In this document: positions 30,219-39,331 of the stretch, piece by piece
Layout: each line of letters begins with the position of its first letter
Numbering within the stretch: the stretch's first letter is position 1
From: a virus
DNA length: 61,812 bases
Direction: 5' to 3' (one strand)
Virus record (IMG/VR): IMGVR_UViG_3300045988_111035
Position numbers and translations under genes: made by a program
The notes under the pieces: generated by a model
What the model saw: only the letters and a program-made list of their open reading frames with translations
The model's database searches: none
Told to the model about the DNA's origin: nothing

Positions 30219-31715
30219 TCATTTTTGTGTGTTTAAGGTGTCACGAACTCTCTCAAAGTACTTGGTCTGTCCTTTGGTCATGTTCACCACCTTGATTTGG
30301 ATGGTGCATTTGTCGGGCACGCCGTCCTTGATGGAGTCCATGAGCTGGTCAATAATCTCATCAGTGTCGTGGTAGCCCTTGCCATCCACATGAGCCACCA
30401 CCTCACCCATGAAGTAAGCGTCCGCACACAACTCAAACTTTTCCTCCACCTTGTCAAAGGTTGGAAGATGGTGCTCCTCCAGTCGCTTGCTCTTGTCGTT
30501 GGTGAAGAAAATCTTCTCCACCACCCTCTCGTTTAGTTCCCACGCCCGAGAGAAATCAGGCTTCACGTAGCCCATCGTCACCTTGTGTGTGCTGATGTGG
30601 TTCATGGCAAAGCCAATCTCCTCGTAGCTTGCCCCCAAGTCGTTCTGTGCGATGGTCGCCCAAGTATGCCTAAAGGTGTAAGGAGTGTATTGGCTACCAG
30701 TTATATGTAAAATCTCGCATAGTTCCTTCAAACTACGGCTCAACTTGGAAGTAAGCGTTCCTAAAGGATTTCGCTTATGAAAGTAAAACAGAAACTCGTC
30801 ATCCTGGGTGGAAAAATATTTTTCCATGGTAGGCAGAAGCATGTCGGGCACTTTCATTTCAATATAGGCATGGTCTTCCCTTTTTGTCCTCGTCTTTCTT
30901 CTCTCATAGTGGAGAATCCCATCAAAGTAATCTTTCTTTTTCATTGAATATAGGTCTGCTACATTGATTCCTGCCAAACACAAAATCATCTTGCATACAT
31001 CAATCGTGAGTATCAAGGACTTTTTCTTGGGCATCAAGGAAAAGAACACACGGCATTCCTCCATGGTAATGGCTTTCTTTTCAGGTCTTTCCAACTTGGG
31101 AATCACAATTTTCTGCCAAGGATTGTTTTTGACAAGTATAATGTCATTGTCGTAGTCATTGTACTTCTTCAATCCCTCGTTGAATATGCGCTTGATATAA
31201 AGTGGATATACAAACTTGCAGGAACGAAAATCTTTTAGGGATTTAATCCAGTTTGAAACAAGAAGCGTTGTCAGTTGTCTAAACATTATTTTACTGGAGC
31301 CAGTGAAAGCTTCCAAACTATTCAAGGAGTTTTCGTAATTTAGGATTGAACGAGGTTGCAACGAGTCTCGCAAGGAATCGATGTATTCTCTAGCAAAGGC
31401 GGAGAAATCTATATCCTCGTTCTCTTGTTGGAGATATTTATGCACTTCCGACACTGACCATTTGGAACAATCAACCTTGTTCAGTTTGTCGTACCACTTG
31501 TTGATAATGGGCATCAGCTCATTGACGACAAATGTATCTTTGACATCTTTAGTTCCCTTCACGATACCTTTGTCATTAACCATTTTGTCCGTCTTTACGA
31601 ACATAACCTTTCGATTATGGGTCAGCCTGATGTAAACTGTATAAAAGCCATCTGAACGCTTATACTGTACGACTACCTTAAATGTTGCCATATTTCCTAA
31701 ACTATTTATAAACAT
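30219..31715 (-). CDS. int: Tyrosine recombinase/integrase (Bacteroidota phage-type with N-terminal arm-binding domain)
   Basis: The N-terminus FKVVVQYKRSDGFYTVYIRLTHNRK is arm-domain-like. The catalytic region has YTFRHTWAT (HxxR box) and NHISTHKVTMGYV (H...Y). About 100 aa of extra C-terminal sequence follow. An alternative start lies at 31691. Confidence 0.85.
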   Translation of the reverse strand: MFINSLGNMATFKVVVQYKRSDGFYTVYIRLTHNRKVMFVKTDKMVNDKGIVKGTKDVKDTFVVNELMPIINKWYDKLNKVDCSKWSVSEVHKYLQQENEDIDFSAFAREYIDSLRDSLQPRSILNYENSLNSLEAFTGSSKIMFRQLTTLLVSNWIKSLKDFRSCKFVYPLYIKRIFNEGLKKYNDYDNDIILVKNNPWQKIVIPKLERPEKKAITMEECRVFFSLMPKKKSLILTIDVCKMILCLAGINVADLYSMKKKDYFDGILHYERRKTRTKREDHAYIEMKVPDMLLPTMEKYFSTQDDEFLFYFHKRNPLGTLTSKLSRSLKELCEILHITGSQYTPYTFRHTWATIAQNDLGASYEEIGFAMNHISTHKVTMGYVKPDFSRAWELNERVVEKIFFTNDKSKRLEEHHLPTFDKVEEKFELCADAYFMGEVVAHVDGKGYHDTDEIIDQLMDSIKDGVPDKCTIQIKVVNMTKGQTKYFERVRDTLNTQK

Positions 31716-36316: not shown

Positions 36317-36538
36317 ATGAAGAAATTCAAGACATTATCCTGCATCGCCGTTTGGGCGATTCTCATTTGGATGGGACTGAGCAAGCTATCGACCGCCATA
36401 CATGACGAGAACGTGGTGGCACAAATGTCGCAATCCACCTACGACGAGATTGTGGACACGCTCACCATCAACAACAACGGCTTTGCCCCTAGCGAGCACC
36501 AGATAGTGACATACTATTATGAACGCTACGCCAAGTAA
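36317..36538 (+). CDS. Small membrane protein
   Basis: 73 aa with an N-terminal TM segment (LSCIAVWAILIWMGL). Confidence 0.5.
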   Translation: MKKFKTLSCIAVWAILIWMGLSKLSTAIHDENVVAQMSQSTYDEIVDTLTINNNGFAPSEHQIVTYYYERYAK

Positions 36539-36677: not shown

Positions 36678-37934
36678 ATGAATCACGCAAGTTTATTCAG
36701 CGGAATCGGTGGGGCTGAGGTAGCCGCATCTTGGATGGGATGGCACAACGCCTTCCACTGCGAGATACAGGAGTTTCCCCGAAAGGTCCTGGAATACTGG
36801 TTCCCAAACTCAGAAAGTTATGAAGACATTACCAAAACAGACTTCACAAAGTGGCACGGCAAGGTCGATGTTCTCACAGGAGGATTCCCCTGCCAACCTT
36901 TCTCCCTCGCTGGTCGAAGAAAGGGAGCGGACGATAACCGCTACCTCTGGCCGCACATGCTTCGGGCGATTCGGGAAATTCAGCCCACTTGGGTCGTTGG
37001 TGAGAACGTTGCTGGAATCAAGACGATGGTGGAGTCCTGCCAAGTCGCTAAGTTGGGGCGTTCAGACGATATATTCGAGGAGAATCACATATACCGAGAG
37101 GAAAGCAAGTTCACACTCGACAAAATCTGCCAAGACCTTGAAGAAGCTGGATATTCCGTCCAACCGCTTGTTATTCCAGCTTGTGCCGTCGGAGCACCGC
37201 ACAGAAGAGACAGGGTTTGGATTGTTGCCCACCGTGCAGACGCAAGGGCTGAAACAATGCAACAAGGACGGCAAGACGGAGTTCATGCCGCTAGACCTTC
37301 TGCCGACTCCCAATGCAATGGACTTTCCACACAAGGGAATGGAAATCAACGAGAAGGGAAGAAGGAATCCCAAGAAGGGCAAGACAGACCACAGCCTAGG
37401 TCTAGAAGACATGGCAGTGGCACAACTCCTTCCTACGCCCACGGCACTCGACAAAGGAGGAGGAAGAATAAACAAGAGCCTTTCACCGAATGCAGCAGAA
37501 CGCCCAACCTTGGCACTCGCCGCTCGAAAAGGCTTGCTTCCCACTCCTACAGCAATGGAAGCCACGAAGTTCACCAAGACCATCAATCCCAATTCCCAGA
37601 TGGGGCAAGGACTAACAGCCTTGGCGGTCAACGGTCTTCTCCTCATTCCAAGTGCAACAGATGGTCTCAGAAGTACAATGACAATGGATTCTTTGAAGAG
37701 CCACAACAAGGAGAATGCCAACCTAGCGGAGCAGATAGCCCACAAAGTAGGTGGCGGAACTTCCCAACTCAATCCCCTGTTTGTAGAGGAAATGATGGGA
37801 TTCCCTTTGATGTGGACAGCCTTACCATTTCTTTCCCCAAGTGGCGACAAGAATCCATAAAGGCATACGGCAACGCATGGGTGCCACAAGTGGCATACGA
37901 GATATTCCGTGCCATAGAGGAAATATCCCTCTAA
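36678..37934 (+). CDS. DNA (cytosine-5)-methyltransferase, frame 0
   Basis: Motif I is LFSGIGG. Motif IV is GGFPCQPFS (PCQ at 36888..36896). Motif VI is GENV (37002..37010). Motif VIII is APHRRDRVWIVA. Motif X is YGNAWVPQVAYEIF. The middle ~190 codons are R/Q/S/G/H-rich low complexity. Confidence 0.9.
   Translation: MNHASLFSGIGGAEVAASWMGWHNAFHCEIQEFPRKVLEYWFPNSESYEDITKTDFTKWHGKVDVLTGGFPCQPFSLAGRRKGADDNRYLWPHMLRAIREIQPTWVVGENVAGIKTMVESCQVAKLGRSDDIFEENHIYREESKFTLDKICQDLEEAGYSVQPLVIPACAVGAPHRRDRVWIVAHRADARAETMQQGRQDGVHAARPSADSQCNGLSTQGNGNQREGKKESQEGQDRPQPRSRRHGSGTTPSYAHGTRQRRRKNKQEPFTECSRTPNLGTRRSKRLASHSYSNGSHEVHQDHQSQFPDGARTNSLGGQRSSPHSKCNRWSQKYNDNGFFEEPQQGECQPSGADSPQSRWRNFPTQSPVCRGNDGIPFDVDSLTISFPKWRQESIKAYGNAWVPQVAYEIFRAIEEISL
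36820..37860 (+). CDS. Overlapping +1-frame ORF (346 codons) with LLPTPxAxD repeats and an MGFPxxW motif
   Basis: Five spaced repeats: LLPTVQTQG (37222), LLPTPNAMD (37297), LLPTPTALD (37426), LLPTPTAME (37534) and LLLIPSATDG (37636). NPLFVEEMMGFPLMWT also occurs, with MMGFPLMWT at 37792..37818. Internal ATGs lie at 36820 and 36868. Confidence 0.5.
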   Translation: MKTLPKQTSQSGTARSMFSQEDSPANLSPSLVEERERTITATSGRTCFGRFGKFSPLGSLVRTLLESRRWWSPAKSLSWGVQTIYSRRITYTERKASSHSTKSAKTLKKLDIPSNRLLFQLVPSEHRTEETGFGLLPTVQTQGLKQCNKDGKTEFMPLDLLPTPNAMDFPHKGMEINEKGRRNPKKGKTDHSLGLEDMAVAQLLPTPTALDKGGGRINKSLSPNAAERPTLALAARKGLLPTPTAMEATKFTKTINPNSQMGQGLTALAVNGLLLIPSATDGLRSTMTMDSLKSHNKENANLAEQIAHKVGGGTSQLNPLFVEEMMGFPLMWTALPFLSPSGDKNP

Positions 37935-37966
37935 GTTATGCAAATTGACTAACCAAGTAAAGAACA

Positions 37967-39331
37967 ATGAAATCAGACGGCTACATCATCACTCCCGAGC
38001 TGTTGCAGTGGAGATACTTCCATCGCCCAGTGGTCGTGCAGGTGCTCATCCATGTGCTCCTGTCTTCCACCCACAACGAGGCATCCGCTGCGACCCTCTC
38101 CTACCGTGACCTTGCCTTGCAGCTCCATGCGACGGTGAAGGCGGTACGCTGCGCCATTGACGTGCTCGTAGCCGAGAGAATCATCACCAAATGCACCTCC
38201 CCAAGGTCTTCCACCAAACTCTATATTAACAGTTCACACCCTCTATCCCACTGCGTCATACCATGGCAAAATGACATTAGGGCACAAGCCACGGCACAGA
38301 TTGGGGCACAACAAGGGGCACAGTTTTCACATTTACAACACGCTGACAATCAAGGTTGTAAGGTGTATTACCAAGACGGTAGGGGCACAGATAGGGGCAC
38401 GGCTACGGCACACATTAGGGCACAGCAAAAACGTGGGGCACAAGCTACGGCACAGATTGGGGCACAGATTTCACACTCCAAAACCCCTTTAAATAAAGGT
38501 GTTCCCGAGGATTTTGAGCCAAGCAAGGGCACAGATGAGGACACAAGCAAGGGCACAGGAGTAAGAGGAAAGAAACAAAGAAAAGAAAACACTTCCCCTG
38601 AAACCCCTATAAAAGAAAACAAACAAAGAAAGCAGAAAGCCCCCACCCAAACACCCAAAAAAGAAAAAAAAAAAAAGTTGGTGGATGCCGAAGCTCAGTT
38701 CTTGGAAGTGCTAAGGCTCTTCAACCGCCTGTTCATGGGCACGCAAGTAAAGTCAATCTCGAAGATGACACCCGACCGCAAGAAGCTGGTCGCCAAGTTT
38801 ATCTCAGATTACTCCTACGAGGACATAGAGCCAATGCTTCGGAAGGCACTCAATTCCGACCTTCTTTCTGGGCGCAAGGATGGAGACTGCTACATTTCCT
38901 TCAACTGGCTCTTCAATCCCAAGAACTACGAGCCTCTGATGGAAGGCACATTCGACAACCCGAAGGTTGCAGCCTCAGCGAGAAAGAAGGCATCAGCCAT
39001 GGCTCAACCCACAGTCTCAGCACCGTCTCCACCTTCCGAGCCTCAGCGACAACTGAGCTACGAGGAGTCCGAGGCGTTGAAGACCAAGCTGAGGGAAGAC
39101 AAGGAGAAGGCTGACAAGGAGAAGCTAAGGCAAAGGTATCTGGACTACATCGAGGCAAGCAAGGACAATCCAAACGGCACGATGGCGAAGATTGTGCGCC
39201 AAGCCTACCAAGACGGCACGCTGGCAAACCTAGGAATCGTGTGGAATCCGTCCATCGAGGAAGAAAACCAGTCGCTCCTAGACTTGGATGACCAGACACA
39301 GAGTTACCTACAGAGCATTTTATCAGATTGA
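37967..39331 (+). CDS. Replication initiator/replisome-organiser-like protein with internal iterons
   Basis: 454 aa. It has an N-terminal wHTH-like region, a central AQ-rich tandem repeat, a K-rich linker, and a C-terminal ...CYISFNWLFNPKNYEPLMEGTFDN typical of phage replication-organiser C-termini (from memory). Confidence 0.5.
   Translation: MKSDGYIITPELLQWRYFHRPVVVQVLIHVLLSSTHNEASAATLSYRDLALQLHATVKAVRCAIDVLVAERIITKCTSPRSSTKLYINSSHPLSHCVIPWQNDIRAQATAQIGAQQGAQFSHLQHADNQGCKVYYQDGRGTDRGTATAHIRAQQKRGAQATAQIGAQISHSKTPLNKGVPEDFEPSKGTDEDTSKGTGVRGKKQRKENTSPETPIKENKQRKQKAPTQTPKKEKKKKLVDAEAQFLEVLRLFNRLFMGTQVKSISKMTPDRKKLVAKFISDYSYEDIEPMLRKALNSDLLSGRKDGDCYISFNWLFNPKNYEPLMEGTFDNPKVAASARKKASAMAQPTVSAPSPPSEPQRQLSYEESEALKTKLREDKEKADKEKLRQRYLDYIEASKDNPNGTMAKIVRQAYQDGTLANLGIVWNPSIEEENQSLLDLDDQTQSYLQSILSD
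38276..38560. repeat. Iteron-like array: 13 GGCAC(A/G) units at about 12-bp phasing in three clusters
   Basis: Units start at 38281, 38293, 38305, 38316, 38382, 38394, 38406, 38418, 38435, 38447, 38459, 38527 and 38551. There is also a 31-nt near-repeat GGCACAAGC(C/T)ACGGCACAGATTGGGGCACA at 38281 and 38435. Confidence 0.8.
38664..38676 (+). repeat. A13 homopolymer inside the replication gene
   Basis: AAGAAAAAAAAAAAAAGTTGG, encoding a KKKK stretch about 100 bp after the iteron array. Confidence 0.9.

Follow-up and report, generated by a model that had tools for sequence, protein, structure and literature searches.

Most C5-MTases, the DNA (cytosine-5) methyltransferases, are single chains; a 2012 paper describes the vast majority of them as monomers, with M.AquI and M.EcoHK31I as exceptions (PMC3404938). 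In M.EcoHK31I of Escherichia coli HK31 (Lee, Kam and Shaw 1995), the beta gene lies wholly within the alpha gene in another frame, alpha carrying motifs I-VIII as well as X, and beta carrying motif IX (PMC2836561, PMC3404938). Both chains are needed for activity, which is abolished by silent removal of the beta starts, and N-terminal truncations of beta weaken its association with alpha (PMC2836561). The subunits of M.AquI bear motifs I-VIII and IX-X, respectively, the small one containing also the rest of the variable region (PMC3404938). In this report we describe a C5-MTase gene located at positions 36678-37934 of the virus record IMGVR_UViG_3300045988_111035 (IMG/VR), a stretch of 61,812 nucleotides (nt) which, at its full length, is called here the window.

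According to our main interpretation, to which we assign a probability of roughly 0.78, the locus encodes a two-subunit, heterodimeric C5-MTase from two nested frames of one mRNA. As in M.EcoHK31I, the open reading frame (ORF) of the small subunit is contained entirely within the gene of the large one, in another frame, and the large chain has motifs I-VIII together with X, the small chain motif IX. The architecture itself is already known from one characterised enzyme (M.EcoHK31I) and from uncommented annotation in Paenibacillus phages. Our data add evidence for a wide spread of this layout, taken so far for an exception, for a recognition domain located in the unannotated frame and for a division of the overlap into three regimes of constraint.

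Organization of the locus

An earlier note, made from the letters of the window and referred to below as the original prediction, had found this locus protein-like in two overlapping frames and offered four explanations: two compensating frameshifts, programmed recoding, a split or heterodimeric enzyme with M.AquI as the precedent, and an overprinted gene. The three ORFs which it listed (418, 346 and 301 amino acids, aa) are present at exactly the coordinates claimed, and so are the five LLPTP-type modules and the motif IX-like peptide of the +1 frame. We call the frame-0 product alpha and the +1 product beta. The features are as follows.

36678..37934, + strand: alpha ORF (frame 0), 418 aa; C5-MTase large-domain chain with motifs I-VIII, low-complexity linker and motif X
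36820..37860, + strand: beta ORF (+1 frame), 346 aa, wholly inside alpha; N-terminal extension, LLPTP modules and motif IX
36678..37232, + strand: alpha residues 1-185; motifs I (FSGIGG), IV (GGFPCQPFS), VI (ENV) and VIII (GAPHRRDRVWIVA); selection mainly in frame 0
36820..36822, + strand: beta start ATG, made by the alpha codons TAT-GAA (Tyr-Glu of SYEDIT)
37029..37082, + strand: beta-frame-constrained element WSPAKSLSWGVQTIYSRR, within the alpha catalytic region, in the variable loop between motifs VI and VIII
37233..37748, + strand: alpha linker, residues 186-357 (172 residues); in the +1 frame the same DNA encodes the putative target-recognition modules of beta
37222..37665, + strand: five LLPTP-type beta modules, starting at 37222, 37297, 37426, 37534 and 37636
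37749..37860, + strand: segment constrained in both frames; NPLFVEEMMGFPLMWT of beta motif IX (37771-37818) lies over WRNFPTQSPVCRGNDGIPFDVD of alpha pre-X
37861..37934, + strand: alpha-only C-terminus; motif X IKAYGNAWVPQV
37062..37967, - strand: antisense ORF, 301 codons; a by-product, no gene

Alpha is a C5-MTase by its motifs I, IV, VI, VIII and X, found where they had been claimed, and by its matches to PF00145 (E 9e-41), TIGR00675 dcm (117.6 bits vs a cut-off of 100.65) and phrog_363. It does not carry a target-recognition domain (TRD) and motif IX between motifs VIII and X in one polypeptide: motif IX occurs solely in the +1 frame, and motif X is, as had been noticed, back in frame 0, 3' of the beta stop. 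The low-complexity middle of frame 0 was likewise borne out, residues 186-357 being 51% R/Q/S/G/H and 8.7% hydrophobic, compared with 32% hydrophobic residues in the catalytic core. Of the two peptides representing the frames, HGSGTTPSYAHGTR is a stretch of the alpha linker and LLPTPTALDK a stretch of beta. Four of the modules are marked by 30-nt DNA repeats (37293, 37422, 37530 and 37632; spacing 129, 108 and 102 nt). The Pfam comparison of both translations, proposed originally as a check, returned PF00145 for frame 0 and nothing for the +1 frame; beta has no NCBIfam match either, and it matches phrog_1008 ('DNA methyltransferase') with E 1.9e-23.

The selected frame along the gene

Both frames are conserved, and the frame under selection changes along the gene. 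Mean pairwise divergence was calculated over 43 homologues at alpha codon positions 1/2/3, with the following results.

Upstream of the beta start: 0.157/0.094/0.315; alpha coding
Motifs IV-VIII: 0.151/0.075/0.249; mainly alpha
Module region: 0.434/0.249/0.266; alpha position 1 is beta position 3, hence beta coding
Last 110 nt of beta: 0.127/0.038/0.095; both frames constrained
Downstream of the beta stop: 0.131/0.117/0.367; alpha coding

From 5' to 3' the selected frame is that of alpha (motifs I-VIII), of beta (LLPTP modules), of both (motif IX over pre-X) and again of alpha (motif X), and the overlap shows three distinct regimes of constraint. In the linker/module region the amino-acid difference is 0.50 for alpha vs 0.35 for beta. 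Synonymous variation of alpha, 0.28-0.31 in its singly coding parts, falls to 0.23 where the beta N-terminus is overlapped and to 0.09 in the segment under double constraint, and that of beta falls from 0.34 over the modules to 0.13 in this segment. The alignment of homologues proposed in the original prediction thus showed the +1 ORF to be continuous and conserved, with frame-specific constraint.

The +1 frame had also been said to read like a protein over motifs IV-VI. This appearance is mostly a shadow of frame 0, whose third positions vary most there, but a short +1-constrained element at 37029-37082 is real: in the sliding window, alpha position 1 (= beta position 3) gives 0.34 and 0.23, and alpha position 3 gives 0.22 and 0.15. 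The beta residues W70, L77 and W79 are at least 90% conserved among 90 diverse beta proteins.

Maintenance of both frames and of the beta start codon

Selection acts also on the openness of the alpha frame and on the beta start codon. When synonymous codons of beta are shuffled in the module region, with protein and codon content left unchanged, about 7 alpha-frame stops are expected in the window and on average 8.0 (range 4-14) over the 43 homologues; none was observed in 43/43 sequences, the probability of zero stops, P(0), being <= 0.003 for each. The third frame and the antisense frames contain stops in about the numbers that shuffles predict. Since the linker is stop-free against expectation and at the same time unconserved, alpha is read through this stretch, which is free in amino-acid sequence, and selection on the linker is for openness alone, not for sequence. 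Shuffling of alpha over motifs IV-VIII gives about 2.1 expected beta-frame stops (mean P(0) 0.057), and again none was found in 43/43 sequences.

The Tyr codon of SYEDIT is TAT, which keeps the beta ATG, in all 129 of 129 loci. Tyr sites lying in alpha alone are mostly TAC (97 TAC/22 TAT in AYGNA and 93/41 in YWF), and the Tyr of RYLW, within the overlap, is TAC in 97 loci and TAT in 48. Nearly all of 143 loci have an in-frame ATG 21 or 25 codons 5' of motif IV; that of the window lies 142 nt from the start of the gene. Paenibacillus phage BN12 has a Shine-Dalgarno-like GGGAGGTG within alpha codons 10 nt 5' of the beta ATG. These features of the sequence strongly suggest that beta is initiated independently.

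The same data bear on programmed double frameshifting, in which ribosomes would shift +1 just 3' of motif VIII, at about 37220-37290, and then -1 at about 37820-37860, past motif IX, to make one canonical chain. The selected frame does switch from alpha to beta and back to alpha as such a product would need, and the two frames, when virtually joined, give a sequence collinear with M.HhaI as well as with the single-chain gp66 of Mycobacterium phage DillTech15 (see below). However, the strongly selected openness of the linker in the alpha frame would be pointless if ribosomes left it; the beta ATG, kept by an invariant synonymous site, lies 400 nt upstream of the supposed frameshift point, and the beta-constrained element 37029-37082 is also upstream of it. 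No slippery heptamer was seen by eye at either junction of the window sequence, synonymous variation is not lowered directly 3' of motif VIII, where beta position 3 retains a value of 0.40, natural fused alleles join at many positions and are mostly singletons, and M.EcoHK31I is inactive once its beta starts are silently removed (PMC2836561). With the abandoned frame kept open, the beta ATG retained and no heptamer visible, we regard programmed recoding, one of the four options offered originally, as very unlikely.

As to the fused alleles, a joined alpha-beta-alpha query retrieved solely plain alpha proteins and sporadic 1-nt-indel alleles fusing alpha to beta. Their joins fall after motif V, between motifs VI and VIII, at motif VIII or anywhere in the linker, and all are devoid of motif X. 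We take such alleles for mutant or erroneous and not for a form under selection.

Beta and the small domain of the enzyme

Between its motifs VIII and X, alpha shows no sequence conserved among homologues, and so no recognisable TRD or motif IX. Motif IX of beta stands at canonical spacing from motif X of alpha, and a 60-mer joining the two matches PF00145 positions 279-323 (E 0.18); the alpha C-terminus alone gives no such PF00145 match. A profile of joined alpha-beta-alpha sequences aligned to M.HhaI in three collinear pieces, motifs I-VI to residues 16-124 (71.7 bits), VII-VIII to 132-174 and IX-X to 266-314 (conditional E 9e-5). The motif X residues G397, N398 and P402 (joined numbering; G398, N399 and P403 of alpha) are invariant, single-chain gp66 included, and gp66 matches the beta TRD by tblastn with E 2e-9, the invariant residues of motifs IX and X being common to gp66 and the joined sequence. 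The joined sequence is in this way collinear with both canonical and single-chain relatives. In the M.HhaI structure of Cheng et al. 1993, the large domain reportedly comprises the N-terminal part and the motif-X helix, and the small domain, TRD plus motif IX, is said to be inserted within it. As alpha and beta divide along these same large and small domains, the split is a clean one between domains.

An AlphaFold2 (AF2) model of beta, built with 90 diverse homologues, has residues 1-50 disordered, then a helix and a long hairpin at 76-123, which is its best-scored part (predicted local distance difference test, pLDDT, 68-85). In this model the element 37029-37082 would encode part of the predicted hairpin in the N-terminal extension.

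It could be argued that alpha is a self-sufficient methyltransferase and beta an unrelated overprinted protein, or one with an added, alpha-independent role. Beta indeed belongs to no Pfam or NCBIfam family, its N-terminal hairpin has no known counterpart, and in several Bacteroides chromosomes it is intact beside a degenerate alpha. On the other hand, alpha is the chain that lacks a recognisable TRD and motif IX, beta ends with a motif IX placed at canonical spacing from alpha motif X, and in gp66 the modules share one frame with motifs VIII and X, being fused in between the two. The loci with degenerate alpha are few, and they carry little weight because they are near-identical copies with a mosaic TRD. 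We consider this explanation unlikely. For the heterodimeric enzyme, the overprinted gene and the split methyltransferase, listed as separate options in the original prediction, are one and the same thing, and dual-frame conservation and selection support it.

The Bacteroides loci in question (L123-L125, L129-L131 and L136 of our set; e.g. L124 1401-2520 and L130 1401-2466) have an intact beta of 330-348 aa and an alpha without motif I, with a stop in the linker, that does not reach motif X. For the pair L124 and L130, the proportion of synonymous differences (pS) is 0.03 in the N-terminal part and 0.50 in the TRD+IX part, a pattern in the sequences that indicates exchange of the recognition region by recombination; in the comparison of these two for selection on beta, the divergence is due to this recombination.

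Distribution of the nested layout

The same two nested ORFs are present in the Bacteroides phages BS-TP4 and BKO1-TP3 (DNA identity 70-75%), where it is the frame-0 ORF, its middle just as meaningless, that bears the annotation 'DNA methyltransferase'. A scan of IMG/VR yielded 79 loci with 46-96% identity in the +1 protein, nearly all with end-to-end tblastn matches in both frames, and together with the two Bacteroides phages these make 81 phage loci. Alpha and beta are both intact in 72 of the 81, with a middle of 825-1233 nt, and the third sense frame is open for at most 106 codons in all of them. Each of the remaining nine has suffered a single nonsense mutation, a 1-nt indel or a 5' deletion, which is ordinary decay of an accessory gene.

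In a sample of 80 species genomes from GTDB, reaching down to 32% identity of the +1 protein and made up mostly of Bacteroidota with few Firmicutes and Proteobacteria, 58 have an open frame 0 bearing motifs IV, VI and X, together with a +1 frame continuous to motif IX. The nested layout was found also in Paenibacillus phage BN12 and Lacticaseibacillus phage R9.1, as well as on Citrobacter, Leptospira and Rhodoplanes plasmids, for which RefSeq annotates alpha alone. Altogether there are about 150 independent loci (assemblies and isolates) from at least five phyla, with 32-96% beta identity. Beta is always in +1 relative to alpha, and the length changes among homologues are all multiples of three, with both frames staying open. 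There are 2433 homologous beta gene calls, none of the 120 best listed having a Pfam domain, and the beta family comprises 3731 clusters at 50% identity.

This distribution decides about an artefact or decay, that is, two compensating indels, from sequencing error or in a pseudogene, in a single-frame gene of the LLPTP type. A single-frame relative does exist (DillTech15 gp66), and nonsense or indel lesions do occur in about 10% of metagenomic alleles. Against this, the same two-frame layout recurs in all those independent assemblies and isolates across phyla, both 'wrong-frame' stretches are kept open against expectation, and the joined alpha-beta-alpha query found no fully single-frame close relative. 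Because the two-frame layout is the conserved norm in homologues, artefact and pseudogene are excluded, our estimate of their probability being practically nil, and the two compensating frameshifts suggested at first are refuted.

The alleles with a nonsense mutation or 1-nt indel include L004, L005, L022, L041, L043, L080 and L081, and from alleles with lesions gene callers emit chimeric 'proteins' (P0271-P0304 and similar), changing from alpha to beta at arbitrary points, that are now in protein databases. Another unusual product is P0331 (562 aa, a BS-TP4-like alpha), with an internal duplication of about 115 residues over motifs IV-VI, in which YWFPNSKSYEDIT...DLEREGY occurs twice. On a Rhodoplanes serenus plasmid (L167 1057-2757), the beta frame continues past motif IX without a stop and forms a 566-aa ORF running into the downstream 'site-specific DNA-methyltransferase' gene (annotated 1858-2757); it may be beta fused to a second methyltransferase.

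The number of LLPTP modules varies from 1 to 8 between homologues, always by whole codons, and module indels separate close relatives. Together with a pS of 0.03 in the core and 0.50 in the TRD, this favours a further, tentative idea, of which we are rather doubtful: that beta is a separately encoded, exchangeable specificity subunit of a C5-MTase, functionally similar to HsdS of Type I systems. The LLPTP modules would then be swappable, gained, lost and recombined in whole-codon blocks with the alpha core constant. If so, methylation specificities could be retuned or increased in number by phages and mobile elements of many phyla, and the nested layout, not the monomer, would be normal for an enzyme clade thousands strong whose recognition subunit is unannotated.

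Proposed mechanism

In the mechanism that we propose for the heterodimeric enzyme, ribosomes starting on one mRNA at 36678 would make alpha (about 47 kDa), and those starting at 36820 would make beta (about 38 kDa). Alpha would constitute the complete large catalytic domain, motifs I-VIII being tethered to motif X by the 172-residue, compositionally disordered linker, and beta the complete small domain, composed of the N-terminal extension, four to five LLPTP target-recognition modules and motif IX. From the sequences we infer that alpha and beta form a heterodimer, in which the beta N-terminal extension probably docks on alpha, the modules and motif IX would complete the DNA-binding cleft, and the two chains would rebuild the canonical enzyme. 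The window contains an integrase gene (30219-31715), and the replication initiator gene adjoins that of the methyltransferase. The phage is a temperate one of Bacteroidota, and self-protection is the likely role of the enzyme, which most likely methylates phage and host DNA against restriction.

Several points weigh against this interpretation. Translation of both products and enzyme activity are predicted from the sequence, and the likeness to M.EcoHK31I is to its published description; blastn of the catalytic region against E. coli genomes gave no match. Most of the beta N-terminal extension evolves as a shadow of alpha, and the evidence for its openness, with the mean P(0) given above, is modest per sequence, which makes the true N-terminus of beta less certain than its existence. 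The intact beta beside degenerate alpha in some Bacteroides chromosomes could hint at an alpha-independent role. Structure prediction is of little help: the AF2 model of beta has a mean pLDDT of 59 and a predicted template modelling score (pTM) of 0.25, a Foldseek search of beta against PDB gave no match at E <= 0.001, and the AF2 model of alpha, from a shallow alignment of 38 close homologues, has a mean pLDDT of 32, for which reason the absence of secondary structure in alpha 187-369 is not evidence.

Antisense ORF and neighbouring sequences

The 301-codon ORF on the opposite strand is open as stated in the original prediction, but it is not a conserved feature and adds nothing. It is in codon register with alpha, so that its stops can occur only where alpha uses TTA, CTA or TCA; such codons are found in alpha solely at 36693, 36810 and 37062, and the ORF ends at the last TCA codon, 37062. 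The longest antisense open stretch in homologues varies from 83 to 307 codons, antisense stops are about as numerous as in shuffles, and the ORF has no Pfam or PHROG match. As unconserved, with stops as in shuffles and with no family match, it was rejected as a gene.

The methyltransferase gene (36678-37934) has 51.4% G+C, and the whole window 46.7%. Directly upstream of it there is a small ORF, 36317-36538 (73 aa, hydrophobic N-terminus, MKKFKTLSCIAVWAILIWMGL...), with a counterpart at the same position in the relative L063 (upstream of 2338), in which the alpha N-terminus is deleted. The replication-initiator gene (37967-39331) contains imperfect 12-nt tandem repeats at 38380-38425 and 38520-38557, which give rise to AQATAQIGAQ-type peptide repeats and, in a different frame, to a spurious ORF of 73 aa (38271-38492). 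The tandem repeats may represent iterons of an intragenic origin.

Significance

Within a very large family, present on phages, prophages and plasmids of Bacteroidota, Firmicutes, Proteobacteria and Spirochaetota, nesting is the rule. With no Pfam or NCBIfam model for beta and RefSeq records of alpha alone, the recognition domain is invisible to annotation, and specificity predictions would draw on a meaningless low-complexity 'variable region'. If the heterodimer model is true, the annotated gene product expressed alone is probably inactive. Long overlapping genes of prokaryotes are otherwise contentious, and the present same-strand overlap of about 1 kb, with both frames clearly under selection and a precedent studied by experiment, can serve as a clean reference, in which a stretch that must stay open yet is free in sequence illustrates a distinct kind of constraint. 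Naturally split methyltransferases are also starting points for targeted-methylation tools (PMC2836561).

Comparison with known systems

Our search of the literature on LLPTP-type motifs and on overlapping or nested phage methyltransferases found no description of a nested alpha/beta family. The locus differs from genes with programmed frameshifts in that no heptamer is visible by eye, the abandoned frame is kept open and the junctions of fused alleles are scattered. With M.AquI it shares the division of a C5-MTase into two polypeptides. The ORFs of M.AquI are, however, consecutive, whereas here beta is nested and motif X is on the chain with motifs I-VIII, 3' of the beta stop. The split or heterodimeric option of the original prediction is therefore supported, but M.AquI was the wrong precedent for it, because its small subunit carries both motifs IX and X; M.EcoHK31I is the one that matches.

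The chains of M.EcoHK31I have about 309 and 176 aa, and those described here, with 418 and 346 aa, are longer. The literature places the predicted TRD of M.EcoHK31I in its alpha and 'only motif IX' in its beta, whereas here the variable region of alpha is an unconserved linker, and the candidate recognition modules, with purifying selection, are in beta. M.EcoHK31I is also part of a restriction-modification system; the present gene belongs to a phage, and no nuclease was noticed in those nearby genes that were scanned.

The nearest annotated parallel is the pair gp62/gp63 of Paenibacillus phage BN12 (MG727695), nested in the same +1 manner, with alpha of 356 aa and beta of 234 aa; its beta contains WPTP/ATPTAS modules and NPDWVECLMGFPIGWT. 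Compared with the window it has fewer modules, a Firmicutes host and a Shine-Dalgarno-like sequence before beta. Both gp62 and gp63 are already annotated as DNA-cytosine methyltransferase, and the BN12 paper names both genes and is silent on the overlap (PMC6070908).

In DillTech15, gp66 has everything in a single frame: motifs I-VIII are followed by four LLPTP modules and then by FPEWMMGWPAGWVT (motif IX) and IIGNGVCP (motif X). A 102-aa +1 ORF within gp66 (L083 1196-1504), at the usual place of beta, has a sequence similar to the beta N-terminus and an LLPTPDTG module. Because this ORF keeps beta-like sequence, it suggests that single-chain gp66 may have arisen from a nested ancestor by frame fusion. 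With the canonical monomer M.HhaI (PDB 1MHT), finally, the locus is collinear over motifs I-VI, VII-VIII and IX-X once beta motif IX is joined to alpha motif X; M.HhaI differs in consisting of one chain and in having a TRD not related to the LLPTP modules.

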